Shown in pieces: positions 8,010 through 62,827 of a stretch of 64,000 bases of DNA. Position numbers and translations under genes: made by a program. Every line of letters starts with the position of its first letter. The stretch's first letter is position 1. A model generated the notes under the pieces. That model searched no databases and was not told where the DNA came from. It worked only from the letters and a program-made list of their open reading frames with translations. The DNA lies in the NCBI GenBank assembly GCA_963614045.1, contig CAVEBU010000002.1:676-64675 (forward strand), given 5' to 3'. The DNA is from Alistipes finegoldii (GTDB lineage Bacteria; Bacillota; Clostridia; Christensenellales; UBA1242).

Positions 8010-8018
8010 AATAAGGTA

Positions 8019-8419: not shown

Positions 8420-8463
8420 TTGTCCACCAAGATAGGAAAAGATGCTGTAGTGGTGTCTTTTTT
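8406..8463. repeat. 58-bp direct repeat, copy 2
   Basis: Identical to 8081-8138. Confidence 0.9.
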
Positions 8464-8684: not shown

Positions 8685-8716
8685 AAGTAAAAAACGCAAT
8701 AAAAACACTGCGTTTT
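8685..8716 (-). terminator. intrinsic terminator after degV (8724)
   Basis: AAAACGCA / TGCGTTTT stem (8691-8698 / 8709-8716), with a T-rich run following on the minus strand. Confidence 0.5.
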
Positions 8717-8723
8717 TGTGGAT

Positions 8724-9608
8724 TTATTCGGCGAACGGACAGCGCTTGTTTGCAAAAAACGCAATCAAAACGGAACCCGAACCGACGTGTGCGCCAACGA
8801 TTGGCGAGAGAAGACGGCGTTTGATTGTGCAATCGGGTGCGATTTTTTTGATAATTTCCGTCATTTCGTCCGCAGTTGCGCTTTCGTTGGCGTCGATTAT
8901 GTATACGTTTTTGGAAATCGTCGGGTCAAAATTCTCCTTAAAATACTCGCCCATAACTTGCAGACTTTTTTTGATACCTTTCTGCTTATTTATCATATGC
9001 AAGCCCCCGCCGTAAATCGTGATAATCGGCTTGATATTGAGAATTGAGCCGAAAAAAGCGGTTGCGGAACCGATTCGCCCTGTGCGTTTCAGCGAATTTA
9101 AATCGTCAACGACGAGGTAGCCTTGAATTAAATTTTTCATTTCGTTCAAGTCGTCGGCGTTCTCCGTAATCGACTTGCCTGCGAGTTTGTTTTCCGCCAT
9201 ACGCTCCGCCAAAAGCCCCATTGGAGCGGTGGCGAGTAGGGAGTCAACGGCGACCAAATCGACGTCAGGGAATCCCGTCTTGAGATTTCTGATAGCTGTT
9301 TGAACGGACTGAAAAGTTGATGACAAACCGCTAGACAAACAAACATAAAGGGCAGATTTTCCGCTCGCAAGATATGGCCTAAAGAAATCTTCATAAAGCG
9401 CAGGGTTGATTAAAGACGTAGAAAATGAGCATTTTTGCTTAATTTTATCATAAAAATCCACCAAATTCATACCATTTTCGTCTGCAGTGTATGTTTGTGG
9501 CTCGTTATCGAGCGTTACTTCCATCGGCAAAAATTTAATATCGTGCTGTTTTGCGAATTCGCCGTCAATGTCGCCCGCAACGTCCATAAACAATAAATAA
9601 TCTCTCAT
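8724..9608 (-). CDS. DegV family fatty-acid-binding protein
   Basis: 294 aa with a DegV-type LSSGLSSTFQS serine motif and family-length similarity. Confidence 0.85.
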   Translation of the reverse strand: MRDYLLFMDVAGDIDGEFAKQHDIKFLPMEVTLDNEPQTYTADENGMNLVDFYDKIKQKCSFSTSLINPALYEDFFRPYLASGKSALYVCLSSGLSSTFQSVQTAIRNLKTGFPDVDLVAVDSLLATAPMGLLAERMAENKLAGKSITENADDLNEMKNLIQGYLVVDDLNSLKRTGRIGSATAFFGSILNIKPIITIYGGGLHMINKQKGIKKSLQVMGEYFKENFDPTISKNVYIIDANESATADEMTEIIKKIAPDCTIKRRLLSPIVGAHVGSGSVLIAFFANKRCPFAE

Positions 9609-15706: not shown

Positions 15707-15992
15707 CGAAAAAGATGCTGAAAAACTGACTAAATCGCTATTAAAAAAGGCGATTGGCTATACGGTTGACGAAGTCGTTGAGGAGTATGTAAACAGCGAA
15801 AATGCGGAAAATTTGCACTTAATTAAGCGAAAAATCACAAAAAAACACATTCCGCCCGACATTTCTGCGGTAAAAACGCTCTTGGAAACGACGGAAGACA
15901 ATTTTGAAAAATATCGAAAAATGAGTGATGAAGAATTGCTGAAAAAACGAGACGAGTTGCTAAAACAAATCTCAAAAGGAGGGAGCGGATGA
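15699..15992 (+). CDS. small phage protein, possibly small-terminase-related
   Basis: GTG start overlaps the terL stop, with an AGGAGG RBS. KKHIPPDISAVKTLLE resembles a conserved segment of some TerS proteins (weak). Confidence 0.3.
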   Translation: MIDEKDAEKLTKSLLKKAIGYTVDEVVEEYVNSENAENLHLIKRKITKKHIPPDISAVKTLLETTEDNFEKYRKMSDEELLKKRDELLKQISKGGSG

Positions 15993-16183
15993 AGGTATTT
16001 TTAACAAATAAGCGAGTTAAATGTACTGGGAAGGTCGACTGCAAAAATGAAATTTACTGCAATATCAAATTCAGCAAAGCGAGTATAAATTTGTGCAGGT
16101 CGTGTGCGGTGGAGTTGTACGAAAAGTTAGCCCAGTCGCTTGTGCCGAAATCGGTAAAAAGTAAATTTTATATGCAAAAATAA
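15989..16183 (+). CDS. small Cys-rich (putative zinc-ribbon) phage protein
   Basis: 64 aa; C-x5-C ... C-x2-C pattern; ATGA overlap with the upstream gene. Confidence 0.4.
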   Translation: MKVFLTNKRVKCTGKVDCKNEIYCNIKFSKASINLCRSCAVELYEKLAQSLVPKSVKSKFYMQK

Positions 16184-16201: not shown

Positions 16202-18124
16202 ATGCAAAAAAATCAAAAAATTGAGCAAAAAAGTAAATCTTCCAAGCAAAAAGAGTTGGTTGCTGAAATTAAGAAAGATTTCGAAAGGCGTCAAGAAGAA
16301 CGCAAGCCGTTCGATGCGCAGTGGCAACTTAATATGAATTTTGTGATGGGAAATCAGTACTGCGGAATCGGGCTAAATGACACTTTGGACGATTTCGACA
16401 AGCAGTACTTTTGGCAAGAGCGTGAAGTTTATAATCATTTGGCGCCGTTGGTTGAGACGAGGCTATCGAAATTGGCAAAAGTTCGTCCGACGATGACGGT
16501 TTTGCCCGCAAGTGCGGACGCTGACGATATAAATAACGCTCATATTTGCAAAAATATACTAAAAGCGGTCGCTGACAAGCTGGAATTGAGCGAACTTGTG
16601 GCGCAAGCGACTCGCTGGAGTGAGATTTGCGGTACGTCTTTCTACAAAATTATTTGGAACGATTCCGCAGGCTCTGTCGTTGGGCTAACGACTTTAGGGC
16701 AGAAAATTTACGAGGGCGATGTGGACATTATGGTTTGTTCGCCGTTCGAAATTTACCCCGATAGTAACACCGCAGAATCTCTCAGTGACTGCCAAAGTGT
16801 CATTCACGCACGTGCTTATGACGTTCGAACTATCAAAAAACACTGGGGTGTGGACATAAAAGGCGAGGATATTGACACCTATAATTTGCAAAATTCGCAA
16901 GTTGCGGGCGGTTTGGGGTACACCTCTCGGTCGGCAAAAGTGTCAAAAACGGTCAAACACAATCACGCAATGGTGATTGAGCGGTACGAAATGCCGAATA
17001 ATGAGTTCCCAAATGGGCGCTTGGTGATAATTGCGGGCGATGAATTGGTTTATGACGGAGATTTGCCATATTTGAATTTGCAAAACGGCGAAAGAGGTTT
17101 CCCGTTTGTTCGCCAAATCAGTACTGGTCAGCCGTCGTTGTTTTGGGGAACGAGTATAGTTGAGCGCTGTATTCCTATTCAAAGAGCATATAATGCGGTA
17201 AAAAATCGCAAACACGAGTTTATGAACAGGCTTTCTATGGGTGTTATGAGTGTGGAGGACGGCTCTGTCGATGTGGATAATTTGGAGGAAGAGGGCTTGA
17301 GTCCTGGCAAAGTCCTGATTTATAGACAAGGTTCTCGAGCTCCTCAAATGCTCACGAGTTCGAGTTTGCCGGTCGATTTTCGTGAAGAAGAAGAGAATTT
17401 GATATCAGAATTCCTTAATATTAGTGGTGTAAACGACCTTTTTGGCACAAATGCCGCCGCTTTGACTCAAATGAGTGGTGTCGCCCTGCAACTTTTGATT
17501 GAACAAGAGGATATGCGTGTGTCGGCGAGTGGCGAGTATATCAAATTTGCTCTAAAGGAAATCGGTCGCCAGATTTTGAGAATTTATAAGCAGTTCATTA
17601 CGACGCAAAGAATCAACAAAATTATCGGTGAAAACGGCTCAAGTGAGCTTTTTTACTGGGACGGAAGCGAAATTACTAGCGATGACGTTACTTTTGAAAC
17701 GGAAAGCGAACTTGGTGAAACTGTGGCGCAAAAGCGCAGTATGGTGTTTGATTTGTACAACGCAGGGCTTCTGCACGACGAAAATGGGAAAATGTCTAAC
17801 GCTATGCGCATAAAAGTTATGGAAATGTTGGGGCTTGGAATTTGGGAAAACGCTATGGACAACAATTCTCTGCAAGTCGAAAAAGCAAAACGAGAAAATA
17901 TTGAATTTGCTGAGGGCAAAGAGCCTGAAGTTCTTGAAATTCACGACCACGATTTGCATATAAATTCGCATATTGCATTTATGCTTGGTGCCGATTTTGA
18001 GAAATTAACAGCAAAGAAAAAGGATATTCGTGAAAAACTTTTGCAACACATTAGAAAGCACAAACAATTTAAAAGACTTACCATTAAAGCGGATAGCCAA
18101 ATGCTCCAAGAGGTAAGCAAATAA
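16202..18124 (+). CDS. phage portal protein
   Basis: 640 aa. The N-terminal FDAQWQLNMNFVMGNQY motif is typical of portal proteins, and the gene sits between terminase and scaffold. Confidence 0.85.
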   Translation: MQKNQKIEQKSKSSKQKELVAEIKKDFERRQEERKPFDAQWQLNMNFVMGNQYCGIGLNDTLDDFDKQYFWQEREVYNHLAPLVETRLSKLAKVRPTMTVLPASADADDINNAHICKNILKAVADKLELSELVAQATRWSEICGTSFYKIIWNDSAGSVVGLTTLGQKIYEGDVDIMVCSPFEIYPDSNTAESLSDCQSVIHARAYDVRTIKKHWGVDIKGEDIDTYNLQNSQVAGGLGYTSRSAKVSKTVKHNHAMVIERYEMPNNEFPNGRLVIIAGDELVYDGDLPYLNLQNGERGFPFVRQISTGQPSLFWGTSIVERCIPIQRAYNAVKNRKHEFMNRLSMGVMSVEDGSVDVDNLEEEGLSPGKVLIYRQGSRAPQMLTSSSLPVDFREEEENLISEFLNISGVNDLFGTNAAALTQMSGVALQLLIEQEDMRVSASGEYIKFALKEIGRQILRIYKQFITTQRINKIIGENGSSELFYWDGSEITSDDVTFETESELGETVAQKRSMVFDLYNAGLLHDENGKMSNAMRIKVMEMLGLGIWENAMDNNSLQVEKAKRENIEFAEGKEPEVLEIHDHDLHINSHIAFMLGADFEKLTAKKKDIREKLLQHIRKHKQFKRLTIKADSQMLQEVSK

Positions 18125-38569: not shown

Positions 38570-38643
38570 ACGATGTAGTTTACTTTTGGTAAACTAGATA
38601 CTCAAGGAACTTGTTCTCATAAAAGACAGCTTAAATCTGTCAC

Positions 38644-38720
38644 TGGGGTGAATAGTGGGGTTCGAACCCACGACCTCCAGAGCCACAATCTGGCGCTCTC
38701 CCAGCTGCGCTATATCCACC
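38644..38720 (-). tRNA. tRNA-His (anticodon GTG) with encoded G-1
   Basis: Reverse complement GGTGGATATAGCGCAGCTGGGAGAGCGCCAGATTGTGGCTCTGG...TATTCACCCCA, with an extra 5' G opposite the discriminator C. Confidence 0.85.
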
Positions 38721-38797
38721 ATAATTGAGTGATACAAGTTAAGAAGTCCCCAAAAAGCGAACTGCATTTAGAAAACCAGAGAGTTATTCGTCTGGAA

Positions 38798-38874
38798 TGG
38801 TGCGCCCAGAGAGACTCGAACCCCCAACCTTCACCTTAGAAGGGTGTTGCTCTATCCTGTTGAGCTATGGGCGC
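38798..38874 (-). tRNA. tRNA-Arg (anticodon TCT)
   Basis: Reverse complement GCGCCCATAGCTCAACAGGATAGAGCAACACCCTTCTAAGGTGA...TGGGCGCACCA. Confidence 0.85.
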
Positions 38875-38927
38875 AAGTGTAAGCAACTCATAAATGCAAT
38901 TGCATCCTACGATTAGGATACTAGACT

Positions 38928-38956
38928 ATTCTATCACAAATCGGACAATATGTCAA
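38928..38956 (-). promoter_or_regulatory. promoter of the five-tRNA operon
   Basis: On the minus strand: TTGACA (38951-38956), 17 nt, TAGAAT (38928-38933), with TGTGA upstream of the -10. Confidence 0.6.
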
Positions 38957-39159
38957 CATTTATTTTACAAAAAGTCAAAAAATTTTTAGAAAATGTCAAC
39001 TTTTGCGTTGTTCGTTTAAGTTACAAGGTAAATATGCCGAGTTAACGCCATTTTGCCGTCGATTTTTAATGCAAATTCGCTTCGATTTGGCGGTTATATT
39101 TTAAAAATTTTGGACCTAAATTTGCGAATTTTGGGCAGTGTGGAGTTGTGCTTGTCTTT

Positions 39160-39939
39160 TTAATTTCCTAGGACGCAAAGCATATAATTCGTTTGCCGAA
39201 TCACGCTAATCAGAGTTTTGAGGCTATCTTGATAGGTGTTTTCGTTTGCGAGGTATTTCAATTGGCTTGCGACATAAAGTGACAATCTATAAATCGGGTG
39301 GAGCGGGTGATTGCTCTTTTTATTTTCGCCGTCGCTAGCGGAATTTATTTTGTGAGCTAAAATTTCCGCTCGCTGTTCCCACAAAAGAGCGAGTTCGTTA
39401 ATTCGCATTAGGGTATAGCTTTGCGAAATCTCGTTTGTGTCCAAATTGTACGATAATTCATATAAATTTTGTAGCGTTTCGTGATATTTTTGGTTAATGG
39501 TAGTTGTAATTTGAACCTCGTCGTCCGTCATATTATTAAGAGAAAAAATCGGCAGACGAAGTGCTTTTACTTGTGTTGAAATACCTTGTTCATCAAGTTG
39601 TTTTGCGACAACCAGAGCGCTTTTTTCGGTCGGGTAAACAGCCAAAACCACGCCAAAATTCGTGTCGTTTTTAATTACAACCCCCGCACCGCCCCGAGCC
39701 TTAAATTCCACCGCTTTTGCTTCCGCCGTTTCGTAAGTTTTTGCGTCAATATTTGTGTAAATTAAGTAGTAATTTTGAGTATCCGTTTTCGGCACAAAAA
39801 ACAGTGATTTTAGGGTAAAAAATATCGCAAAAAAAATTCCGCAAAAAATCGTAAAAAATAGCAAAAAAATCTTGAGTTTGCTTTTTCGCCGTTTTTTGCC
39901 GATTAAAATTACTTCGTGATATTCTTTTTTGACCCGCAT
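39160..39939 (-). CDS. membrane-anchored SPOR-like domain protein
   Basis: Basic N-terminus plus a TM helix, then YYLIYTNI...AEAKAVEFKARGGAGVVIK...FGVVLAVYPTEKSALVVAKQLDEQGI, which resembles a SPOR repeat. Confidence 0.5.
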   Translation of the reverse strand: MRVKKEYHEVILIGKKRRKSKLKIFLLFFTIFCGIFFAIFFTLKSLFFVPKTDTQNYYLIYTNIDAKTYETAEAKAVEFKARGGAGVVIKNDTNFGVVLAVYPTEKSALVVAKQLDEQGISTQVKALRLPIFSLNNMTDDEVQITTTINQKYHETLQNLYELSYNLDTNEISQSYTLMRINELALLWEQRAEILAHKINSASDGENKKSNHPLHPIYRLSLYVASQLKYLANENTYQDSLKTLISVIRQTNYMLCVLGN

Positions 39940-40362: not shown

Positions 40363-41997
<1,635 letters not shown>

Positions 41998-42042
41998 AGC
42001 GGTTGCCGTTAATCTCAAAAATGCGCTTATTTGAGTACGACA

Positions 42043-42070
42043 AAAAGCACCTTTAACAAGGTGCTTTTTT
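42043..42070 (+). terminator. intrinsic terminator after groEL
   Basis: AAAAGCACC-TTTAACAA-GGTGCTTTTTT. Confidence 0.8.
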
Positions 42071-42528
42071 AATTGAGATAAGGGGGATAGTTGCTAAAAT
42101 TTGCGGGTTTCCTGCAAATTTTAGCGGGTAAGTGGCTGTTTTGTGTGTTTTTTGTTAAAATTTAATTGGTTAATAGATTGCTTTAACTTTCTAAAAAAAT
42201 GTTTTCGTGTTTTTCATTTGCTATATTTTGTTTATTTTTAAGTTTCATTTTTGTTGTAATTAATTGTATTTATTTTTGTGTAAATATAGTACCTCCTAAA
42301 TATATATTTGTACATAAGTTAAATAAAAAAAGAGTTTTATTGTTCTAGTGTTTTGTGCGTTGTGTCACTAGATGTTAAAGCTCTTTTTTATTAATTTATA
42401 TTGGATTTTTATTAATTTAATCATATTTATTTAGTATTTTTATTTTTCTTTATTCTTAAATAGAAAAAAGCAAAAAAATATCAAAAAAAATCATATTTTT
42501 CATATTTTTTCTTAATTTTTTGTGATTT

Positions 42529-42795
42529 TTACAGTTTTTTAATGATATTTTTTGCACGTTTGATAGGAATAGGGGCAAGTTGACTTGAAAGGTTTCGCTC
42601 GATTTTTTCGACAGTGCCGACGAGTTCTGAAGCAGGGTAGCCGTACGGCACAACTACTTTGTCGCCAATTTTTAATTCTAAAATATCGGTTGTGTACCAG
42701 CCGATTTTGTTTTCGCCCAAATAGTCAAAACGGACTTTTACAAAGTCCGCAAATTCCAAATCTTTAATTTTGCCACCCGCAAGTGAATGTATCAT
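42529..42795 (-). CDS. small protein, function unknown (downstream partner of rhuM)
   Basis: ATG 42795 is preceded by GGAG (the ORF-track GTG at 42825 lacks an RBS); 88 aa; no family recognised. Confidence 0.4.
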   Translation of the reverse strand: MIHSLAGGKIKDLEFADFVKVRFDYLGENKIGWYTTDILELKIGDKVVVPYGYPASELVGTVEKIERNLSSQLAPIPIKRAKNIIKKL

Positions 42796-42879: not shown

Positions 42880-43902
42880 TTACTTATTTGTAAGTAGTTT
42901 TTCAGCTTGTTTAATACTCGCCAAAAAGTCCTTTTCAACCTGAGTCAATTCGTCTATACTCTTTTGTTTATATTTCTCATATTCCTTAAGAGCTTTTGCT
43001 CGTGCTTCAATTTGACTGATTTTTCCTGGATTTTCGAGGGTATTTCGGTGATTTATCGAGATAAATTCGTCCAATTCCTTAATCCAGTCCCGCATATACA
43101 TAGGGCGTTCTTCTATCGCTTGGATTTCGGCGATGTCAAAATAAGCGGACACAAGACGATTCAAGACGGCAAGTTCTTTCTCATTTAGGTAATTTTTTGC
43201 GACTAAAACCTCGCTTTTGGTAGGCCTTGCACCTTTGAAACAGGTCAGCCCCATAAAAGGAAGTTCCGCATTTGCTCGTGCTTCAATCAATTCGCTAGCA
43301 GTTTTGCCATGCGTTGCGTAGTGGAACTTGTTTTGCATAGCCTTGAAAAAATTTTGAGCGGTCTCGCTTTTGCCGTCGTAGTCAATGCTTGTGGCGAAAA
43401 GATCCAAAACTTGACGATACATAACTTTTTCGGATGAGCGAATGTCACGAATTCTTTCTAGCAATTCTTTGAAATAATTGCCACCGCCCGCTTGTTTGAG
43501 AAGTTCATCGTTCATTGCAAACCCCTTAACGAGATACTCTTTCAGCACCGTATTCGCCCAAATTCTAAACTGCGTACCACGAAGCGATTTAACACGATAA
43601 CCGACCGAAATAATCACATCAAGGTTGTAGAATTTCTTATTGCGGGAAACTCTCCTATTGCCTTCTTGTTGAACTTGTAAGAAATCCTTACAAGTTGAAC
43701 TTTCCTCTAGTTCGCCCTCTGCATATACGTTACCAATGTGCATGGTGATATTTTGCGGAGAAGTTTCAAAAAGCTCGGACATTTGTGCCTGCGTGAGCCA
43801 AACTGTATCGTTGTCGAATTTGACATCGATTTTAGTTTTGCCGTCCACTGTTGTGTACATAATAAATGAAGTGTTTTTTTCTACGATTTCGTCTTTTGCC
43901 AT
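42880..43902 (-). CDS. RhuM family protein
   Basis: ...IDVKFDNDTVWLTQAQMSELF..., FYNLDVIISVGYRVKS.RGTQFRIWA..VLKEY matches the conserved RhuM core as I recall it. Confidence 0.75.
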   Translation of the reverse strand: MAKDEIVEKNTSFIMYTTVDGKTKIDVKFDNDTVWLTQAQMSELFETSPQNITMHIGNVYAEGELEESSTCKDFLQVQQEGNRRVSRNKKFYNLDVIISVGYRVKSLRGTQFRIWANTVLKEYLVKGFAMNDELLKQAGGGNYFKELLERIRDIRSSEKVMYRQVLDLFATSIDYDGKSETAQNFFKAMQNKFHYATHGKTASELIEARANAELPFMGLTCFKGARPTKSEVLVAKNYLNEKELAVLNRLVSAYFDIAEIQAIEERPMYMRDWIKELDEFISINHRNTLENPGKISQIEARAKALKEYEKYKQKSIDELTQVEKDFLASIKQAEKLLTNK

Positions 43903-44111: not shown

Positions 44112-44834
44112 CTACTTCTTGCTTACGTAGGTTTCAAGCACTTTTTTTGCCAAATACTTGTGACCTTCTTCAGACAAGTGAATACCGTCGTCGCAGTAGA
44201 GTTGTTTCCAATTCTTATTTTTTTGAATCAAACTTCGCAAGTCGAGGAGTTTTACATTTTCGCTTTTTGCGATTTCAATTATGCGTTCGTTAAACATAAT
44301 TTGTGCGCTCAGCAGGTTATTTACATCGTTGTCAAGATAAAACATAATGTTGTGTGCGCTCCCGAGTTTCGACACAACAGTGTCAAAGTATAATTTCGGC
44401 ACGAACGGGAGCAGGGTACACATATAAACCTCAAAGCCGTTTTCACGCAAAAAGTGTATAGCTTCACGATAGTATTTCTCAAAATTGTCAAGGTTCGTCT
44501 TTGAAGAGTGCGGAGTAGTCGGCTCTTTGCTGACTTTTGACCAATCATAGTCCGAATCGTTTCCGCCCAGATTGATTACTACAAGATTGCGCAAAGTGTC
44601 GCTCTTGTATTGCAAAACTTTCTGCACGAAACCCTTCTTGTACGCCTTTTCCAAAGTTTGACCAAAAAAGGAAATGTTGTGCGTCTGACAACCAACACTT
44701 TCGCTTATAATGTTGACAGTGCTATTGGGTGCGACTACATACTTGTCTTGAATGTCACGAACGACCCCTTTGGCGTTTGAGTCGCCCAAAATTACCAAAT
44801 TGGTTTGCTTATTCAAGGTTATTTTTTCCTCCAT
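44112..44834 (-). CDS. SGNH/GDSL hydrolase
   Basis: Start MEEKITL... at 44834. Block I LVILGDSNAKG and block V DDGIHLSEEGH are present. Confidence 0.8.
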   Translation of the reverse strand: MEEKITLNKQTNLVILGDSNAKGVVRDIQDKYVVAPNSTVNIISESVGCQTHNISFFGQTLEKAYKKGFVQKVLQYKSDTLRNLVVINLGGNDSDYDWSKVSKEPTTPHSSKTNLDNFEKYYREAIHFLRENGFEVYMCTLLPFVPKLYFDTVVSKLGSAHNIMFYLDNDVNNLLSAQIMFNERIIEIAKSENVKLLDLRSLIQKNKNWKQLYCDDGIHLSEEGHKYLAKKVLETYVSKK

Positions 44835-45660
44835 CAAACAAAATACCAATGCAATTTGGCCCGCAGTGGCAACAAATTGTGCCGTTTGCAAAGGTGTCGT
44901 AAACGTGCTTGAACCCACGTTTTGCTAAACCGCTCTTAAACATCTCCACAATTTCAGGCATATCGGACGAGTGAGTAATAAAAACATAATCAAGATTCGG
45001 GTTAGGGTAGTCCTGCAAAAGTGCGCTGATGTACTTGTCCGCAGCGGACTTCATATTGCCCATAAATTTGCGTTTCACTGTCAATTTTCCGTCTTTCATC
45101 TGAATTTGTGGCTTAATTTTGAGAATATTCGCACCCAAAAGCGCCAAAGCACTGCATCTGCCACCTTTATATAAATAGTTAAGATTTTCAAGGATGAACC
45201 CCGTCTGAATCTGCGGAACTTTCTTGTTAAGCAGTTCCACAATTTCGTTTAATTCCTTGCCCTCATCAACAAGTTGCCGTGCGTAAATCGCCAAAAGCGC
45301 AATCCCTGTTGAAAGCTGTAGGGAGTCGATTATATAAACGTTTTCAAATTCTTCCGCCGCCAATCTTGCGTTAGAGCAGGCACTACTGATTCCGCTACTT
45401 AATGAAATGTGAATTATTGCATCATAATTTTCTTTAACTTTGCCAAAAAATTCCGTATAGTCTGTCATATTAATTGCCGCAGTTTTTGGCAACTGTTTTT
45501 TCTCTGCAACGTAGTCATAAATCTTTTGCGAAACGCCCTCATAGTCCGCAATATAATCGTCGCCCAAAACTACATAAAAAGGTATAGTTTGAATGCCGTA
45601 CTCATCTAGCAAATTCTGTGGCAAATCAACAGTACTTTCCGCCGTAATTGCTATTTTCAT
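44809..45660 (-). CDS. DegV family fatty-acid-binding protein
   Basis: MKIAITAESTVDLP..., ISLSSGISSACSNA; ATG 45660 lies after GAGGT. Confidence 0.9.
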   Translation of the reverse strand: MKIAITAESTVDLPQNLLDEYGIQTIPFYVVLGDDYIADYEGVSQKIYDYVAEKKQLPKTAAINMTDYTEFFGKVKENYDAIIHISLSSGISSACSNARLAAEEFENVYIIDSLQLSTGIALLAIYARQLVDEGKELNEIVELLNKKVPQIQTGFILENLNYLYKGGRCSALALLGANILKIKPQIQMKDGKLTVKRKFMGNMKSAADKYISALLQDYPNPNLDYVFITHSSDMPEIVEMFKSGLAKRGFKHVYDTFANGTICCHCGPNCIGILFDGGKNNLE

Positions 45661-45923
45661 AATTAAATTTACCTCGCTTTTTTGTATATATACAATTTTA
45701 TTTATTTTTAATAGATTTTGCACCCTAATAAAGAAAAAATAACTCTCTTGCGCTTAGATACAACTCTCTTGAAACAAACAACAACTCTCCTGGCAAGAGA
45801 ATTGCCCATTTTTTACTAAAAAATTGTTGATTTTTTGATGATTTTATGCTATATTTAGTGTGAAGTTTGGCCAAAAAGAATTTTTTAACATTTTTTATTA
45901 ATTAAATTAAGGAGAGAATTTTT

Positions 45924-53697: not shown

Positions 53698-55104
53698 ATG
53701 AAAGACGATTTGACGATGACTGATTTGGTCGCACTTTGCAAAAATAGGGGTTTTGTGTTCGCAAGCAGTGAAATTTACGGCGGACTGAGTAATTCGTGGG
53801 ATTATGGTCCGCTCGGTGTGGAGTTGAAAAACAACCTCAAATCTGCGTGGTGGAAACGCTTTGTGCAAGAAGAACCGCACAACGTCGGGCTTGATAGTGC
53901 GATTATTATGAACCCGAAAGTTTGGAAGGCGAGCGGACACCTAGACGGCTTTAGCGACCCGCTTATCGACTGCAAAAATTGTAAGACACGTCATCGTGCG
54001 GACAAGTTGATTGAGGAGTGGGTTTTTGCCAAAGAGCAGAAGGGCGAAAAGGTTAATATTGGCAGTGTGGAGGCGATGAGCGATGAGCAGTTGCAAACGT
54101 TTATTGCGGAAAACCACATCACTTGCCCGAACTGTAACAAGTGCGATTTTACGCCGATTCGCAAGTTCAATTTGATGTTCAAGACCTTTATTGGCGTGAC
54201 GGAAGATAGCGTCAATACTGTGTATTTGCGTCCCGAAACCGCTGGCGGAATTTTCGTAAATTTCAAAAATGTTCAGCGTGCGACCCGCAGTAAAATGCCG
54301 ATGGGCGTGTGCCAAATTGGTAAGGCTTTTCGTAACGAAATCACTCCAGGGAATTTCATCTTCCGCACTCGTGAGTTTGAGCAAATGGAAATGGAATTTT
54401 TCTGCCATCCCGACACCGCAAAATCGTGGCACGAGTACTACCGCAAAGAGTGTTATAATTTCCTTTTGAGCTTGGGAATTCAAGCGGATTTGTTGCGCTT
54501 GCGTGACCACAGCCCAGAGGAATTATGCTTTTATTCGGAAGCGACCACCGATATCGAGTTTAAATTCCCGTTCGGTTGGGGCGAATTGTGGGGTATTGCG
54601 AATAGGACGAATTACGACCTAACTCAGCACCAAAATGCGAGCGGGGAGGATATGAGTTACACTGACCCATTTACTAATGAGAAGTATATTCCGTACGTAG
54701 TTGAGCCAAGCGTCGGTGTTGATAGAATGTTTTTGGCGGTCTTGTGTAGCGCTTATCGTGAGGAAAAACTAGCCGACGACGATACCCGTATTGTTCTAGG
54801 GTTTGACCCGAAAATCGCACCTATCAAAGTTGCCGTTTTGCCATTAAGCAAGAAACTAGAGGAATCTGCTTACGACTTATTCAAGAAACTGAACAGCAAA
54901 TTCCGTTGCGAATTTGACGTAACAGGCTCAATTGGTAAACGTTACCGCCGTCAAGACGAAATCGGCACGCCGTACTGCGTCACAGTTGATTTTGATACCG
55001 AAAACGACCACTGCGTCACCGTCCGCAACCGTGACACAATGGAGCAAGAACGAGTAAATTTGTCCGACCTCGACGCCTACCTATTCACCAAGATTTACGG
55101 GTAA
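53698..55104 (+). CDS. glyQS: glycine--tRNA ligase (single-chain GlyQS type)
   Basis: [35 protein letters not shown] and [28 protein letters not shown] class II motifs. Confidence 0.93.
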
Positions 55105-55262
55105 AAAAGGGGATTTTATTGCAAAAAATCGGTCATAATAAATTGAGATTTTAAAATCAAAATAATTAATCAAAAGAAAAACCACTTGCAAAAAGCGAGG
55201 AACGGGAAGGAGTTTCTGGCATAAAGGGCTAGCAATTTTGAAACTAGCAAAAATTTTATTTA

Positions 55263-55293
55263 GGACTCTAATTTTTATTAGAGTTCTTTTTTT
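55263..55293 (+). terminator. intrinsic terminator at the left edge of the AT-rich island
   Basis: GGACTCTAAT-TTTT-ATTAGAGTTC followed by TTTTTTT. Confidence 0.65.
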
Positions 55294-55324
55294 AATAAAA
55301 TATTCAGCCTTATGAATAATATAT

Positions 55325-55353
55325 TTGCATATTTGAAATTAATGTGATATAAT
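55325..55353 (+). promoter_or_regulatory. promoter of the island operon
   Basis: TTGCAT (55325-55330), 17 nt, TATAAT (55348-55353), with a TGTGA extended -10. Confidence 0.55.
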
Positions 55354-55384
55354 ACAACATATAAATAACAAATTGGAGAAGGCA

Positions 55385-55600
55385 ATGGCTATTTCTTATA
55401 ATAAACTTTGGAAACAATTGATAGATAAAAATATGACAAAAACAGATTTGAGGTTAAAGGCAGATATTGGGACAGCAACACTTGCTAAGCTTGGGAAAAA
55501 TGAACAAGTGAGTATGGATGTTCTTTTGCGCATTTGCAATGTTCTTAACTGTGATATATCTGAAATAATGGAATTAGCAAAGGAGTCTAAAAATGTGTAA
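55385..55600 (+). CDS. small XRE-family HTH protein (possible R-M controller)
   Basis: ATG 55385 lies after GGAGAAGG. MTKTDLRLKADIGTATLAKLGKNEQVSMDVLLRICNVLNCDISEIM is an HTH_26-like pattern, and the stop overlaps the methylase start. Confidence 0.75.
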   Translation: MAISYNKLWKQLIDKNMTKTDLRLKADIGTATLAKLGKNEQVSMDVLLRICNVLNCDISEIMELAKESKNV

Positions 55601-56498
55601 AGGAGTTGCAAAGCCTTTTTTGAAATGGGCTGGCGGTAAAGGACAACTTATGAATACATTTGATGAAATGTTCTCAAATGAACTTATAGAAGACAAAATA
55701 AAAACATACATCGAACCTTTCGTTGGTGGTGGTGCAGTCCTTTTCCATGTTTTACAAAATTACCACATTGAAAAAGCCTACATAAACGACATAAATAAAG
55801 AACTTATAAATTGTTATCGTTGCATAAAAGCGGATGTAAATGAAGTTATAAAGCAACTTGAAGTTCTTGAAAAAGAATATTTATCTTGTGATGATAGGAC
55901 AAATTATTTTTATAACGTTCGGGACAGATATAACTCAATTCATTTAAATGGACATTACGATTTTGAAAAGTGCGCTGATTTTATATTTTTAAACCACACT
56001 TGTTTTAATGGACTTTATAGAGTTAACAAAAGTGGTAAATTTAATGTGCCACATGGCAAATATAAAAATCCTTTGATTTGTGATAAAGAAAATTTGTTAC
56101 TTTGTTCAAAATTGTTGCAAAAAGTTGAGATTAGTTTTGGTAGTTATGAACAAGTTTTAAGCAATGCAGATAAAAACACTTTCGTTTATTTTGACCCACC
56201 TTATCGCCCACTTATTGAGAATAATTCATTTGTAAGTTATGATAAGTCAGGGTTTGATGATAAAGACCAAATTGAACTTGCTGAAAATTTTAAAGATTTA
56301 GATAAAAAAGATTGTTTACTTATGCTTTCAAATTCCGACCCTAAAAACACAAATGAAAATGATAACTTTTTTGATGACTTATATAATGGCTTTGAAATTG
56401 AAAGAGTTTATGCAAAACGAATGATTAACTGTCAGGCAAGTAAGCGTGGAGATATAACAGAAATTGTTGTAATGAATTACAAAAGGAGAAAAAAATGA
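55593..56498 (+). CDS. Dam/DpnM-like (D12 class) N6-adenine DNA methyltransferase
   Basis: KPFLKWAGGKGQL, EPFVGGGAV and FVYFDPPY motifs. Confidence 0.85.
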   Translation: MCKGVAKPFLKWAGGKGQLMNTFDEMFSNELIEDKIKTYIEPFVGGGAVLFHVLQNYHIEKAYINDINKELINCYRCIKADVNEVIKQLEVLEKEYLSCDDRTNYFYNVRDRYNSIHLNGHYDFEKCADFIFLNHTCFNGLYRVNKSGKFNVPHGKYKNPLICDKENLLLCSKLLQKVEISFGSYEQVLSNADKNTFVYFDPPYRPLIENNSFVSYDKSGFDDKDQIELAENFKDLDKKDCLLMLSNSDPKNTNENDNFFDDLYNGFEIERVYAKRMINCQASKRGDITEIVVMNYKRRKK

Positions 56499-57149
56499 AT
56501 ATTTTTACAAACATAACAGATTCTTTGATTTATGAAAAAGAATTTAATAAAAACAAAAATGCTATAGAACTGGTTAGATTTAATTCTAATTATGATAAAG
56601 TAATTGCCCATCACGATAAAGAAAATCTATGTTTTAGATTTTTCAAGGAATTGAATTTAAAAAGAAATGACAAGTTGATTGATAACCACGATAATATTTA
56701 TTTTGTTGATGAGGTGATTGTTAATCAACCATACTTAATAAAAAAAAGACGGATTAATATCTGGAGAGAAAGAATTTCAAACAACAATTGTAAAGTATAC
56801 AAAACAGTTAATAGAATTACCAGACAGCATAAAACAATGTGTTAAAATTGAAACAAATATTAACATTGATGCAAAAAATTCCCAATTCTCAGGTGGATTA
56901 GCTAATTATAACATAAATCAAACAGCTTCATATAATCAAATTTTTGACTTTATGAAAGTGTTATGTAACAATACTTTCAACGTAAAAGAATTGCAACCAT
57001 TTTTACATGGGATTGAAGGCAGTATGAAAGATAAAAAGCCTATTGAAGAAAAATGGTACAAAAAGTTTTTTAAATTTATGGGCACTCAATTGTTAGAAAT
57101 TGCAAAGCAATTTATTGTAGCATATGCTACATCGCTAGCAACCAAATAG
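56495..57149 (+). pseudogene. unknown gene split by a +1/-2 frame change at an A8 run (ORFs 56495-56845 and 56742-57149)
   Basis: ATGA overlap with the upstream methylase. The second frame is open from 56742, directly after the A8 run at 56740-56747, and runs to 57149. Removing one A fuses the two into about 218 aa. Confidence 0.6.
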
Positions 57150-57158
57150 GAGAAAAAT

Positions 57159-58016
57159 ATGAAAAGAAATTTTAAAGAATGGTTTAATACTTTCACTGAT
57201 AGCATTGCGACTTACGAATATTATACAGATTTCAATACAGTCTATAAAAACATTAACAAAATTAAAGTTGAATTAAATATAATGAATTCACTTGTTGGTT
57301 CTAAAAATATTGAAAAAGATTTTGACAACCTCTTCAACAGTTATCCAGAAATTAGAAAATGTTTACCACTTTTAATTGCTGTGAGAGAAAAAGAAATTAA
57401 AGTTGTTGATGATGGTGAAAAGTTAAAATACAACTTTACAAATATTGACGATATTGAACTTTTGAAAAGATTTATGAGAAAAACTGGTTTGTTTGACTTA
57501 ATTTCAAGTCATTTAGTAAACAATCTTGTAGATTATGCTACTGGTGTTGAAGTTGGTCTTGGCTCTAATGGAAGAAAAAATCGTGGAGGGCATCTTATGG
57601 AAGATGTTTTGCAAGGTTTTATTGAGAAAGAAGGTTTTGTTTTAAATCAAACTTATTTTAAAGAAATGTACTTGAAAGATATTGAGAACAAATGGAACAT
57701 TGATTTATCTTCTTTATCCAATCTTGGCAAAGTTGCAAAAAGATTTGATTATGTTGTAAAAACTGATAATTGTATTTATGCTTTTGAAACAAACTTTTAC
57801 TCTAGCTCAGGTTCAAAACTTAATGAAACTGCGAGAAGTTACAAAATGATTGCAGAAGAAAGCAAACATATTAAAGGATTTGCTTTTGTTTGGGTTACTG
57901 ATGGTTTAGGTTGGGTTGATGCTAGAAACAACCTTGAAGAAACTTTTGATGTAATGGACAACCTTTATAACATTAAAGATTTGTCTAATGGCAAGTTGAA
58001 GGAAATTTTAAAATAG
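57159..58016 (+). CDS. DpnII/MboI-family type II restriction endonuclease (GATC expected)
   Basis: YYTDFNTVYKNINKIKVELNIMNSLVGSKNIEKDF, TGVEVGLGSNGRKNRGG and NFYSSSGSKLNETARSYKMIAEE closely track the DpnII sequence as I recall it. Confidence 0.85.
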   Translation: MKRNFKEWFNTFTDSIATYEYYTDFNTVYKNINKIKVELNIMNSLVGSKNIEKDFDNLFNSYPEIRKCLPLLIAVREKEIKVVDDGEKLKYNFTNIDDIELLKRFMRKTGLFDLISSHLVNNLVDYATGVEVGLGSNGRKNRGGHLMEDVLQGFIEKEGFVLNQTYFKEMYLKDIENKWNIDLSSLSNLGKVAKRFDYVVKTDNCIYAFETNFYSSSGSKLNETARSYKMIAEESKHIKGFAFVWVTDGLGWVDARNNLEETFDVMDNLYNIKDLSNGKLKEILK

Positions 58017-58736
58017 ATGGAAGAAAAATTTGAATTAGAAACTAACACTGTTTGGTCGTTTCCAAATCGTGGCAAATGGGCAACCCATGATGCAAAATAT
58101 CGCGGAAACTTTTCCCCTTATGTTGCTAAAAATATCATTTTGAGATATTCGAAGCCAAATGATTTGGTGCTTGACCAATTTGTTGGTGGTGGTACTACTC
58201 TTATTGAATGTAAATTAAATAATCGTAATGCAATTGGTATTGACATAAACCCAAAGGCTGTTGAGATTACAAAGAGCAAACTTGATTTCGATTGTGAATT
58301 TAACAATGAAATAAAAGTTGAACTTGGTAATGCTTGTGATTTGAAAAATATTCAAAATGAAAGTGTCGATTTAATTTGTACCCATCCACCTTATGCAGAT
58401 ATTATTAAATATAGCGAAGATATTGATGAGGATTTATCTCATCTAAAATATAAAGATTTTCTTGTGGCAATTGAAAAAGTTGCTAGCGAGTGTTATAGGA
58501 TTTTAAAGAAAGATAAATTTTGTGCTATTGTTATGGGTGATACTCGCAAAAACGGAATGGTTCAACCACTCGGTTTTGAAGTTATGCAAAGATTTATAAA
58601 CGCAGGCTTTAAACAAAAAGAAATTATCATAAAAGAACAACACAATTGTAAAGCAACAGGTTTTTGGAAAACAAATAGTGAAAAATACAACTTTTTGCTA
58701 TTGGCACATGAGTATGTGTTTGTGTTTAAGAAATAG
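58017..58736 (+). CDS. SAM-dependent DNA methyltransferase, FxGxG before (H)PPY
   Basis: LVLDQFVGGGTTLIEC (motif I) lies about 75 aa before LICTHPPYADI (motif IV). The start abuts the REase stop. Confidence 0.7.
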   Translation: MEEKFELETNTVWSFPNRGKWATHDAKYRGNFSPYVAKNIILRYSKPNDLVLDQFVGGGTTLIECKLNNRNAIGIDINPKAVEITKSKLDFDCEFNNEIKVELGNACDLKNIQNESVDLICTHPPYADIIKYSEDIDEDLSHLKYKDFLVAIEKVASECYRILKKDKFCAIVMGDTRKNGMVQPLGFEVMQRFINAGFKQKEIIIKEQHNCKATGFWKTNSEKYNFLLLAHEYVFVFKK

Positions 58737-58770
58737 TATTTATTTTAATATGTTAAATGAAGGATTGAAG

Positions 58771-59883
58771 ATGAAAAAAGAAAAATTAAAACCTTTACTA
58801 AAGTATCCTGGAGGAAAAACTTCAGAATTGGGTGTTATTAATGAAAATTTGCCCTCTAATATTAATAATTATATTGAGCCTTTTGTTGGCGGTGGTGCAG
58901 TCTATTTCGATTTAAATAATAAGAATAATTTTATCAATGATAAATCTGAAGAACTAATTTTATTATATAAATATATAAAAGAGAATAATCCTACTTTTTA
59001 TAATGAACTTGACATTATAATATCTAATTGGAATAAACTCAAAGAATTAGCAAATAATGATCGAATAACAAATTTATACATTAAATATAGAAATGATGAG
59101 AAATTTGATATGCATCAAGAATTGCAAGATATCATAAACATTGGTATAGAGAAAGTACCTATGTTTACATTGAGAAAAAGTATTAAATTCGAAAGTTTCC
59201 TAGTAGATTGTCTATATCAAAAATTCAGTTTAATAAAAAGAAACGAAATTAAGAAAAAAGAATTATTAGAGCATAGTCCATTGATAGATAATATAGAGGC
59301 TGGAATAAAAGCGGCATACTATACATATTTAAGGGATGTATATAATAAACCAAGTGAATATAATAAATTAACAAGACCTAGAAAAGTCGCTATATATTTA
59401 TTTATAAGGGAGTATTGCTACTCTTCAATGTTTAGATTTAATAAAAATGGTGGATTTAATGTGCCATACGGAGGAGTTTCGTATAATAAAAAAACTTTAG
59501 AAACAAAAATCACATATTATAAGACAAAAGAAGTTAAAAACATTTTAAACCATACTCAATTATATAATGAAGATTTTTATAGTTTTTTAAATAAAATTAA
59601 GATAGATAAGAATGACTTTATGTTTTTAGATCCTCCTTACGATACAACCTTTAGTGAATATGATAGAAATTCATTTGGGATGGAAGATCAAAAAAGATTG
59701 GCAAATTATTTAATCAATGAATGTCCATGTAGATTTATGTTAATTATAAAGAAAACTGATTTTATAGAGAGCTTATATATTAATCAGGGGCTAAAAATAT
59801 TAGAACAAGATAAAACTTATTTTGTTAGTTTTAAAAATAGAAACAAAAAAGATGTAAAACATTTAATTATAATGAATTATTAG
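58771..59883 (+). CDS. second D12-class N6-adenine DNA methyltransferase with enlarged middle region
   Basis: ATG 58771. Motifs LLKYPGGKTSE, EPFVGGGAV, FNVPYGG and FMFLDPPYD are present; about 370 aa against about 300 for the first Dam-like gene. Confidence 0.8.
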   Translation: MKKEKLKPLLKYPGGKTSELGVINENLPSNINNYIEPFVGGGAVYFDLNNKNNFINDKSEELILLYKYIKENNPTFYNELDIIISNWNKLKELANNDRITNLYIKYRNDEKFDMHQELQDIINIGIEKVPMFTLRKSIKFESFLVDCLYQKFSLIKRNEIKKKELLEHSPLIDNIEAGIKAAYYTYLRDVYNKPSEYNKLTRPRKVAIYLFIREYCYSSMFRFNKNGGFNVPYGGVSYNKKTLETKITYYKTKEVKNILNHTQLYNEDFYSFLNKIKIDKNDFMFLDPPYDTTFSEYDRNSFGMEDQKRLANYLINECPCRFMLIIKKTDFIESLYINQGLKILEQDKTYFVSFKNRNKKDVKHLIIMNY

Positions 59884-59892
59884 GAGATTAAT

Positions 59893-61383
59893 ATGGAAGA
59901 TAAAAGATACACTGAAGAAGATTTAATAGATCCAGCATTGTTTCAGATGTATAAACGTGGTGGGAAAATAACCACCGGTGAACTTATAATAGAATTAATC
60001 AATGTCCTAAAACCAACAGGACAAGATGCAGAGTTGTTATTTGGGAGAAAAGATAACAGATTTAGTCAAAAGGTTCGAAATTTAATATCGCATAAAAAAA
60101 TTTATCCTAAATATGTCGAATATGATGGTGATACCTCGTTAATGAGTATTAATAGCGAAGGAGAACAAAGACTTTTTGCATCTAATTATTTTTTATATAA
60201 CTCAAATAAATTAACAGAAAATAGTTATGATGAGCAAAATGATGAGGATCTTTCACCAATTGATGAAAGTGATGATTTTGAAAACATAGACAAAAAATAT
60301 GTAGAATGTGAACCTGTTAACTATTCGGTATATGAGTTAAAAAGGCGCTATGATAGAGCCAAACTAAATAATAGTAATGGGGTTATTAAATTAGATGATT
60401 CCTTTCAGCGCAATACGGTTTGGACGAGGAAACAAAAAAGTCAATTAATAGAAAGTTTACTTTTGGGAATTCCTATTCCATATATATATGTATATGAAGG
60501 CAAAAATAGCAATCTTATAGTTATTGATGGTAGACAAAGATTATCTGCTATATTTGATTTTTTAGATAATAAATATTCACTTACTGGGCTAGAATTTTTA
60601 ACAAAATTAGATGGAAAAAAATGCAAAGATTTAGTAGACAATTTGCTTGAAGATTTAGAAAAGTTTAAAGCAAAATTGGAAGATGCCCATCTTCATGTGA
60701 TAAAAGTAGGATTTGAAACTTCCGAAATTTTTAAGTTAAAAATATTTCAAAGAGTAAATCAGGGTGGAACAAAATTAAATAACCAAGAATTGAGACATGC
60801 TCTACACCAAGGAGCTATTACCAATATGCTAAAGGAGTTATCGGATTCGTTAGATATATTGTCATCTGTGAGTGCAAAAAGCAGAATGAAAGATAGATAT
60901 TTGATTCTAAGATATATATCAATGAGGTTATATATTCTAAATCAATTAAAATTTTATGGCAACAAAGGAAACTTAAATATACCATATAATGAAATTAATA
61001 CATTTTTAGCAAATTCTATGGATGCAATAAATACTTTTGATGATAAACAAATGCTCGAAATAAAAATTGATTTTGTTGAATCTTATAAGTTAGCTTTAGA
61101 GTTGTTGGGAGACAAAGCTTTTAGATTAGAAGAGAATTCTCCTATTAATATGATATTATTTGAAATCACATTATTATTTATTAGTCTGTCAAAAGCAAAA
61201 CATGTTTCTCTTGACAATTTATCATGTATGATAGATGATTTTAAAAATTACGATAAAGAAAATATAGATTCTGATGGAAATACTCCTTTTTTTCAAAATA
61301 TAAAATATCACAGAGATTCTAAGAAAAACTTTGAAGAAAGGATAGAATGGCTCAATAATATTATTTTAAAATATAAAGGATAA
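59893..61383 (+). CDS. DUF262 (ParB/GmrS-like NTPase) protein with N-terminal winged-helix-like domain; no DUF1524/HNH half seen
   Basis: DDSFQRNTVWTRKQKSQLIESLLLGIPIPYIYV...IDGRQRLSAIFDFL is the DUF262 core. The N-terminal ~150 aa resembles Mrr_N-type wHTH (GELIIELINVL...RFSQKVRNLISH). Confidence 0.75.
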   Translation: MEDKRYTEEDLIDPALFQMYKRGGKITTGELIIELINVLKPTGQDAELLFGRKDNRFSQKVRNLISHKKIYPKYVEYDGDTSLMSINSEGEQRLFASNYFLYNSNKLTENSYDEQNDEDLSPIDESDDFENIDKKYVECEPVNYSVYELKRRYDRAKLNNSNGVIKLDDSFQRNTVWTRKQKSQLIESLLLGIPIPYIYVYEGKNSNLIVIDGRQRLSAIFDFLDNKYSLTGLEFLTKLDGKKCKDLVDNLLEDLEKFKAKLEDAHLHVIKVGFETSEIFKLKIFQRVNQGGTKLNNQELRHALHQGAITNMLKELSDSLDILSSVSAKSRMKDRYLILRYISMRLYILNQLKFYGNKGNLNIPYNEINTFLANSMDAINTFDDKQMLEIKIDFVESYKLALELLGDKAFRLEENSPINMILFEITLLFISLSKAKHVSLDNLSCMIDDFKNYDKENIDSDGNTPFFQNIKYHRDSKKNFEERIEWLNNIILKYKG

Positions 61384-61388
61384 CTATT

Positions 61389-62749
61389 ATGTTACGACAG
61401 ATAAAACTGCAAAATTTTAAGTGTTTCAAAAAAGTAAATATTAATTTAAAAAACTTCAATGTCATTTGCGGACCAAATTCATCGGGAAAAACAACTATAA
61501 ATCAAAGTATATTGCTACATTTACAAAATAATAGGATAGATAAAGAGCATTTTATAACAAATGGTAAAATGTACATTTTGATGATTATGCTGAGATAAAA
61601 AATTCAACTACTTCATCTGATAAAAGTGTTGTTATAGAATTGTTAGATAACAAAAATAGAAAACGAAAAATTATTATCACTTCAGAAGATGATGGAAAAA
61701 AAATAAAGTGTAAAGAATATGTTTCTGAATTTGAAATGTTAGATGAAAAAAATATTTTTTATTTATCAGCGAACAGAATAGGGCCAGAAGATGTTTACAA
61801 CAAATTTACTAATGAACTTATTGAACAATATGGGCAAAATGCCATAGGATTTTTAGCAAAGTATCAAAATCAACCGATAGATGAAAAATATGCATTTATT
61901 AAATCTCCAACAAAAGATTATCAATTTATTAAAGAAATAAATTATTGGCTTAATGAAATAGTTGAGGAACAAGTCCATGTGACAGAACTTTCTAGAACAG
62001 ATAAAAGTACGGCAACGTACAGCCATAAAATAAATCCGTTAGAAGTTAGGAATAAGAATACTGGTAGCGGTGTAAGTTACGTAATTGCTATTATTGTAAT
62101 GACTTTTAGTCTTGCAATTAAAGAAAACACCGAAAAACCTCTTATTATAATTGAAAATCCTGAAATACATCTTCATCCACTAGGGCAAATAAAGTTAATG
62201 ACATTCTTAAAGTTCATGTCTCAATTTTGTCAAATTATTCTAGAAACACATAGTGACCATATTATAAAAAATTTTTTGCAGTATACAAATGGTCAAGTTA
62301 TAAAACTAAATAAAGATTTTGTGCCGATTTACTATAATAAAAGAAGTAAATACACATTAAAAACATTGACTTTAGGAGAAGTCCAATGGGAAGCTTTTGA
62401 TTTGCCAACCATAGATTTCCATATTGCTTTGCTCTCATATTTACAAGCAAAATTTAATCAATTTTCTTTAAATCACTTAGATGATTTAATTAGAGACACA
62501 GGAACATTTAAGTCAAACTGCGAGAAATATGATACTAAATGTATGAGATACAAAAATCATATAGATTCAAAGTCCAAATTTGAAACATTGCCTATTTATA
62601 TTCGAAATGTCATAGATCATCCTGTCAGAAAGAAAGGAAGTGGCGAACCTCCAAGGAAAAAATATAGAAAAACTGAAAGCGAATTTTATGAGGCTTTAAA
62701 AAATTCAATTCAATTTATGCTAGATATAATAAAAGAAAAAGGTTGGTAA
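61389..62749 (+). pseudogene. ABC/AAA_21-type ATPase (DUF3696-like) interrupted by a 1-nt frame change; C-terminal domain with RNxxxH motif
   Basis: Walker A ICGPNSSGKTT lies in ORF 61389-61598. Walker B/D-loop LIIIENPEIHLHP and H-loop ETHSDH lie in ORF 61640-62749. The second frame is open from 61568, so an extra A in the A4 run at 61566-61569 would restore ...NGKNVHFDDYAEIKN.... Confidence 0.75.
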
Positions 62750-62769
62750 TTATTAGTATGGCATTTAAA

Positions 62770-62827
62770 CGTGTGCTTGTTTTGATACAAGTCGGTGTCG
62801 CTTCGCTCCACCGAAGACAAGCACACG
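62770..62827 (+). other. long nested hairpin just after the island operon
   Basis: CGTGTGCTTGT (62770-62780) pairs with ACAAGCACACG (62817-62827); the inner pair is TCGGTG / CACCGA. Confidence 0.6.

Follow-up and report, generated by a model that had tools for sequence, protein, structure and literature searches.

The gene for PrrC, an anticodon nuclease, lies inside the type Ic EcoprrI restriction–modification (R-M) operon; the R-M enzyme holds PrrC latent, and a phage anti-restriction factor activates it (PMC1484252, PMC2610378). Here we describe gene X, which occupies positions 56495..57149 (+ strand) of a 64,000-nucleotide (nt) stretch of contig CAVEBU010000002.1 from Alistipes finegoldii (the window, to which all coordinates refer unless a contig is named), and which lies between the methylase (M) and the restriction nuclease (R) of a type II R-M operon. 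The genes of this cassette run in the order HTH_26 controller-like gene (C), D12 methylase, X, DpnII nuclease and N6_N4 methylase, that is, C–M–slot–R–M. The M-R-M order of the operon agrees with the MboI arrangement. X is a single 217-amino acid (aa) gene of an orphan family for which intact homologues exist, it is frameshifted in this genome, and it fills an M-R slot whose content varies among related cassettes. Our preferred reading, to which we assign a probability of about 0.68, is that a run of eight A residues (A8) in X is a lineage-specific null allele produced by single-base expansion from A7, that X is cargo and not part of the R-M core, and that the tract is neither a recoding site nor a maintained switch.

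Results

X is one gene disabled by a single additional A

The first open reading frame (ORF) of X, 56495-56845, encodes 116 aa and begins with an ATG that overlaps the methylase stop codon (ATGA), which confirms the junction with the Dam-like gene described in an earlier note made from the sequence of this DNA. The frame enters the A8 run at 56740-56747 (+ strand), the frameshift site, which is one A longer than the A7 of every intact close relative, and it terminates at a premature TAA (56843..56845, + strand), leaving a 116-aa product (P0018) of 84 native and 32 out-of-frame residues. In the +1 frame, the last stop codon (TAA, 56737-56739) directly precedes the A8 run, and the frame then stays open for 135 codons to a TAG at 57147-57149, 9 nt upstream of the DpnII ATG at 57159; the proposal that the A8 run splits one frame, with the second frame open up to the endonuclease gene, was therefore correct in its coordinates. 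None of 20,000 composition-matched shuffles of this 26% GC segment contained a stop-free stretch of 135 codons, and because of this result and the existence of intact homologues, we conclude that the open +1 frame is not due to chance. Removing one A gives a 217-aa protein that reads ...VNQPYLIKKDGLISGEKEF... across the junction (LIKKDGLISG, two Lys). The expectation that loss of one A would yield a single protein thus held, but its predicted length of ~218 aa and its KKK did not (the actual protein has 217 aa and KK), and that version corresponds to adding two A residues.

We searched the repaired 217-aa X against 5.8 billion protein clusters, which returned 16 relatives, 13 of them 213-221 aa long and aligned over their full length, junction included. 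There are 24 distinct sequences in the closest cluster (99% identity); all 15 of those listed are 217 aa long with LIKKDGL, and the listed variants occur on more than 50 contigs. The same gene order was seen at 99%, 98%, 71%, and 59% X protein identity (contigs L001-L005 and L013-L017). Alignment of the DNA with three near-identical contigs revealed 3 substitutions and one indel over the 655 nt of X; this lone indel is the A7 of L001-L004 versus the A8 of the window, and apart from it X is 99.4% identical to its intact relatives. One amino acid change, K104Q, downstream of the frameshift, was found only in the window's X. Among the homologues compared, we saw no relatives in which the two halves were separate genes having their own starts; instead, as the idea of one gene split at an A run had implied, the homologous loci carry a single 217-aa gene. 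We conclude that X is a single, genuine coding sequence of 217 codons, disabled by a +1A insertion, and that it should be annotated as a pseudogene or disrupted gene and not as two hypothetical proteins.

The A8 allele as a mutation, a switch, a recoding site, or an artefact

In our preferred reading, the lesion would have arisen by a replication slippage-type expansion from A7 to A8 in a run of lysine codons (ATA AAA AAA GAC) that is confined to the closest clade. Translation of the A8 allele would stop after the 84 native and 32 out-of-frame residues, with loss of the conserved C-terminal half; it would finish ~310 nt short of the DpnII start codon and no longer on the ribosome-binding site of that gene. 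Rare slippage by DNA or RNA polymerase could at most restore a little product.

Slipped-strand phase variation has its classic setting in tracts such as this one, an A7/A8 run within the coding sequence of a gene in a defence island. On that reading, a contingency tract would switch X, and possibly R expression too, and this genome would have been caught in the OFF state. Such an OFF state would separate the end of X translation from the ribosome-binding site of R; 250 nt upstream, another A run varies between strains (A6/A7); and consensus assemblies cannot reveal minority subpopulations or low-rate switching. The tract, however, is short and does not occur in homologues of 74% identity or less, and every listed close variant (15 of the 24 sequences, on the more than 50 contigs) is A7. 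When we modelled the A6, A8, and A9 products on three common backgrounds, 0 of the 9 were present among ~15 billion proteins, and the 116-aa P0018 is recorded in that collection on one NCBI contig only, which has 65,314 bp and is evidently the contig that the window comes from. Tract-length polymorphism among relatives (A7 only) and conservation of the tract in the family, the marks of a contingency locus, were both missing. We therefore regard a standing phase switch, which the earlier note had put forward, as improbable.

Under programmed recoding, the A8 allele would still yield full-length X, either because ribosomes shift +1 on A AAA AAA AGA or because RNA polymerase slips. Reading the sequence, a P-site tRNA-Lys could re-pair +1 ahead of AGA and yield exactly LIKKDGL, and transcriptional slippage can occur on poly-A and poly-T runs (PMC5009743). 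Nevertheless, every relative is single-frame, and this contig alone would have a recoding site. The tract codons are ATAAAAGTTGAC in L005 and L014-17 (the 71% clade) and ATAAAGAATCCC in L013 (the 59% homologue); the A run and the KK codons are confined to the closest clade, and the KK dipeptide is not conserved. Downstream of the tract, 93 nt fold at -6.9 kcal/mol (z = -0.23), no better than shuffles, and there were no Rfam matches in 55000-59000. What we found, in short, was a slippery site and two-frame layout that are not conserved and no stimulatory RNA element. As for transcription, one report states that appreciable slippage by bacterial RNA polymerase requires at least 7 T, and still more A (PMC6260861), so rescue from A8 by RNA polymerase would be marginal on that account. 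Because near relatives have only A7, distant ones have no run, and no other tract length was seen among the ~15 billion proteins, we disfavour both programmed frameshifting and a selected phase switch, and of the two it is recoding, likewise suggested previously, to which we give almost no weight.

The A run upstream of this tract differs between strains in its own right. It lies at the methylase 3' end (56489..56495, + strand), where it spans the spacer after the X ribosome-binding site and the A of the X ATG, and it is polymorphic: A7 in the window versus A6 in L001-L003. With A6 (L001 5100-6041), the methylase has 313 aa and overlaps X by 41 nt, and with A7, as in the window, L004, and the Logan contig L007, it has 301 aa and the ATGA overlap. 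Since A7 is also found in L004 and in an independent Logan contig, it is a real natural length polymorphism, which alters the methylase tail and the geometry of M/X coupling.

It could also be that the organism has A7 and an intact X, the extra A having come from a homopolymer miscall or consensus error. We weighed a genuine mutation against such an artefact from assembled contigs. Several observations count against our preferred reading at this point: the lesion affects a homopolymer, the very place to expect an assembly error; the allele is a singleton among all assemblies; and X, otherwise 99.4% identical to its intact relatives, shows no further decay apart from K104Q. In addition, no independent contig spans the A8: the Logan assembly breaks up in this region, its contig L007 ending at 56570, and leaves the tract unconfirmed, and Logan has no record of the 116-aa product or of the repaired 217-aa one. 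Exact look-ups of the 116-aa ORF, its 5'-partial form, the repaired 217-aa protein, and the 65-aa downstream ORF returned nothing beyond the NCBI source contig.

Other observations argue against an artefact. Of the 68 A or T runs in the window that reach 7 nt or more, 61 have 7 nt and 7 have 8 nt, and a scan in which one base was deleted or inserted wherever an A/T run had 6 nt or more, or a G/C run 5 nt or more, found no other convincing homopolymer-linked split gene in the 64-kb window. The frame is kept through three other A8 runs in coding sequence, one of which (61696-61703) is confirmed by Logan and by homologues. The Logan assembly of SRR13434609, made with a different assembler, includes two contigs 100% identical to the window (55336-56570 and 61146-62811; 2.9 kb), which reproduce the A7 at 56489-56495 and the A8 at 61696-61703. 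A frameshift in the NsnB-like gene described below lies outside any homopolymer and was reproduced independently. Finally, other assemblies carry broken cargo genes in the slot that X occupies (L057 and L058, below), and the K104Q change found only in the window lies downstream of the shift. Taking both sides together, the +1A is probably a genuine mutation, and we consider an artefact unlikely; sequencing error, one of the causes named in the earlier note, thus keeps its place among the explanations, but as the less likely option.

The scan flagged 44112-45723 as a possible split gene, and we rejected this candidate, as it comprises separate, overlapping DegV and GDSL genes. The pair 15699-15992 / 15989-16183, without an informative Pfam match, was left as two small prophage genes.

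A variable slot between methylase and nuclease

Sister cassettes whose methylase falls in the same 90% cluster (L018-21) align with the window over 55390-56497 and 57148-58735; homology breaks exactly at 56497/57148, and X is replaced. In its place, these cassettes encode a 174-aa protein with three transmembrane segments and a 64-aa ORF (L018 5903-6638). The 174-aa protein (L018 5903-6427, L022 3266-3790) gave a weak match to PADLOC PycTM (E = 1.7e-6); counting against this assignment, its PF18967 label occurs only in a precomputed Pfam table, and hmmscan versus Pfam-A (E <= 0.01) returned no match, and we use the PycTM label as a tentative one. X is dispensable cargo outside the R-M core, in that related cassettes lack it.

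Using the window nuclease as the query, we collected 71 metagenome loci, of which 55 had a complete methylase and nuclease. M and R were directly adjacent, with a gap of 23 nt or less, in 16 of the 55 loci; the gap was 92-122 nt in three, 248-310 nt in four, and 349 nt or more in 32. The earlier view that X sits in a position unusual for DpnII-type systems is thus right for X itself, which is rare, but not for the slot, as an occupied slot is common. The most frequent cargo was a PD-(D/E)XK (PDDEXK_11) protein (9 loci; Pfam E = 1.9e-5), followed by a DpnA-like methylase, recognised by its similarity to the window's second methylase and placed in the canonical dpnM-dpnA-dpnB order (6 loci), a Mrr_cat protein (5 loci; PDC-S02 E = 5e-25), and a DUF4357 protein (3 loci; PDC-S14 E = 7e-92). 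Two loci each carried a NucS_C/DUF5655 protein (PDC-S18 E = 4.5e-126) and X (98% and 74% identity to the window's X), and single loci carried a TIR protein (Pfam TIR_2 E = 5e-14; PADLOC PDC-S66 E = 2e-17) and the PycTM-like protein with the PADLOC score given above. Several further cargoes were orphan families with no match.

Sequence identities along the cassette form a mosaic: relative to L001, X is 99.4% identical and the flanks 92-96%, and relative to L026, X is 76% identical and the flanks 90-91%. From this we conclude that what fills the slot moves separately from the R-M genes. X is also not the only broken cargo. Among the nine PD-(D/E)XK genes, whose intact versions encode 164-179 aa, two are broken, one by a frameshift (L057, 1409-1925) and one by an in-frame TAA (L058, 2608-3144), and inactivation of slot cargo therefore recurs in nature.

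Protein X has no recognisable family or known fold

The earlier note recognised no family for X, and profile searches agreed. The best Pfam match was DUF4144, at 17.6 bits versus a cut-off of 27; PADLOC gave no match; PHROGs and NCBIfam gave only scattered sub-threshold matches; and the best E value in a PDB sequence profile search was 1.3. Run in full over 1.84 billion cluster representatives, HMMER recovered only 14 proteins, and in 185,579 species genomes X was present at three loci, all in metagenome-assembled genomes of uncultured Clostridia. We also considered a phage or plasmid origin of X and rejected it: there was no match by tblastn in 50,697 phage and 72,556 plasmid records, or in IMG/VR with three different alignments.

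We modelled repaired X with AlphaFold2 from the 14-sequence alignment, with a predicted local distance difference test score (pLDDT) of 82 and a predicted template modelling score (pTM) of 0.76. The model predicts an N-terminal helix, a beta domain (residues ~20-105), an Asn-rich linker, and three C-terminal helices. The linker is of low model confidence, yet it contains a conserved I-N-I-x-A-x-N-S-x-F motif. Taking Foldseek E <= 1e-3 together with a meaningful template modelling (TM) score as a fold match, we found no known fold either in the PDB (best E = 0.014, TM 0.16-0.20) or in BFVD, where the best hits (E = 0.042, TM 0.24-0.42) were uncharacterised phage proteins. In 16 of the 17 family members analysed, hydrophobicity peaked in the C-terminal helix, whose Kyte-Doolittle values (19-residue window) were only 0.9-1.2 in the X clade, where it is amphipathic, and 1.3-1.7 in the most distant clade, where it is borderline transmembrane. 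Beyond residue 84 the frameshift leaves nothing of native X, and the invariant FFKFMGTQ helix is lost with it. We examined by eye the surroundings of conserved D59/D63 for a PD-(D/E)XK-like motif, which we rejected, as there was no convincing D...(D/E)xK.

More distant X-like genes occur in other settings. A 27%-identical gene (234 aa) is found in L009-L012 (L009 2798-4903) next to a Dcm/EcoRII system, and the gene for a 459-aa protein always lies 22 nt upstream of it. This partner had no Pfam or PADLOC match, and the two may form a two-gene module. The EcoRII of L009 is itself split into 122 + 269 aa, versus 384 aa in L010. A 32%-identical gene in L006 resides within an integrase/ImmA/XRE element, outside any R-M operon.

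The surrounding cassette and defence island

The shared cassette corresponds to window positions 55390-58735 and has 29% GC, versus 38% for the window. The best promoter-like site upstream of it, TTTGCA-18-TG-TATAAT (55324..55353, + strand; a consensus match only), lies just 3' of a terminator-like hairpin after glyQS (55262-55287), and we found no + strand terminator-like sites within 55373-58736, which is consistent with a single predicted operon. The first gene encodes a 71-aa HTH_26 (Cro/C1-type) controller-like protein (55385..55600, + strand; Pfam HTH_26 E = 9e-18); the 71-aa form is the version present in the protein collection, and the gene is likewise first in the cassettes of L001, L018, and L022. 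It is followed by an intact 301-aa D12-class (Dam-like) N6-adenine DNA methylase (55593..56498, + strand; Pfam MethyltransfD12 E = 2e-62, profile positions 1-253/253). Beyond X come an intact 285-aa DpnII-family restriction endonuclease (57159..58016, + strand; Pfam DpnII, PF04556, E = 1.8e-102, profile positions 1-277/278), whose GGAG ribosome-binding site overlaps the TAG stop of X (TAGGAGAAAAATATG), and a 239-aa N6_N4 (DpnA/MboC-like) second methylase (58017..58736, + strand; Pfam N6_N4_Mtase E = 2e-31). With a full-length DpnII-family endonuclease, a D12 methylase, and a second N6/N4 methylase all present, the operon that hosts X can be assigned by its predicted proteins to the DpnII/MboI-type type II R-M systems, with a putative GATC specificity. 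Homology to L001-L005 and L013-L022 stops at 58735, marking the end of the shared mobile cassette, and in relatives the cassette resides on elements with flanking serine recombinases, beside AbiO/Nhi, OLD-like, and HEPN genes.

The same island contains a second dead defence gene. Downstream of NsnA (59893-61383), an NsnB-like AAA ATPase (61389..62749, + strand) is frameshifted into pieces of 69 aa (61389-61598) and 369 aa (61640-62749), to which positions 1-62 and 77-308 of the PADLOC NsnB profile map, and its intact relatives have 453 aa. The lesion lies near 61567 and is most parsimoniously explained by one T lost in GGTAAA[T]ATGTACAT, outside any homopolymer; the intact relatives P0065/P0066 read NGKYVHFDD. 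The break is also present in Logan contig L008 (SRR13434609), a 100% match to the window.

Between the cassette and NsnA lies a second D12-class methylase (58768-59883, 23.5% GC), whose longest ORF starts at a GTG at 58678, within the preceding methylase gene. It falls outside the region common to other cassettes and may be a partner of NsnAB or an orphan. Elsewhere in the window, ~12000-42000 is a prophage or phage-like region (e.g., 14249-15706, 16202-18124) with a large terminase (Terminase_6N/6C) and a P22-like portal, a RhuM-family gene occupies 42880-43902, and three stretches of 530-780 nt (7942-8724, 38578-39160, and 41997-42529) have no ORF of at least 60 aa in a greedy gene map. When GlyRS and NsnA were looked up exactly, to find a chromosome closely related to this one, no contig was returned.

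Discussion

The anatomy of the operon suggests how X and R might be connected. In the intact state, X terminates on the nuclease GGAG, and X and R may be translationally coupled; on the A8 allele, with ribosomes stopping well short of that site, R expression could drop. The R-M genes flanking X are full length, and loss of X leaves them intact. Its place in the slot makes X probably an accessory, defence-related protein. By analogy with PrrC in EcoprrI, it might act as a second-line effector by way of its C-terminal helix, an idea that we put forward tentatively and at somewhat less than even odds. Any such function is read from genomic context, as there was no family, fold, or motif match. 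A wider proposal is likewise less likely than not: X might found a new, very rare family (14 of 1.84 billion cluster representatives) of single-gene anti-phage or R-M-guard effectors with an unseen fold, the M-R junction might be a dedicated exchange slot for second-line defence genes under R-M operon control, and the recurrent loss of cargo (X, L057, and L058) might reflect its cost or toxicity.

The frameshift itself is minor, being one more broken accessory gene. We find the by-product of its analysis more interesting: an orphan protein of no known fold in a variable slot for defence cargo. A type II restriction operon here carries interchangeable genes at a fixed M-R position, including Mrr-like, PD-(D/E)XK, TIR, candidate single-gene defence, and orphan proteins. 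If it is true that this cargo is co-regulated with, or guarded by, the restriction enzyme, the logic of PrrC and EcoprrI would extend to type II systems, and inspection of the slot would be a cheap route to new defence genes.

Compared with known systems, the operon resembles the MboI/DpnII-type GATC cassettes in its full-length D12 methylase, PF04556 nuclease, and N6_N4 methylase and in the HTH controller-like gene upstream, and it differs from them in the additional 217-aa gene between M and R. With the phase-variable R-M and defence genes (contingency loci and phasevarions) it shares a frameshift at a mononucleotide run in a gene of an R-M operon; unlike in those systems, the tract is not conserved, other lengths were not seen among the relatives compared, and it is a cargo gene that is broken, with the methylase and nuclease spared. 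The PADLOC candidate single-gene defence systems PDC-S14, PDC-S18, and PDC-S02, and the PycTM/2TM membrane effectors, occupy the same M-R slot in related cassettes, whereas X matches none of these models and has no detectable sequence similarity to them. The comparison with PrrC in the type Ic EcoprrI operon, and with the restriction-linked ORFs (rlo) of type I loci, has limits as well: the host operon here is type II, X carries no NTPase or nuclease signature, distant X-like genes also sit outside R-M operons (L006, L009-12), and the likeness is one of operon logic only. In that logic, the systems agree, as each places an unrelated accessory defence gene inside an R-M operon, and the M-R slot described here also holds stand-alone defence-type genes.

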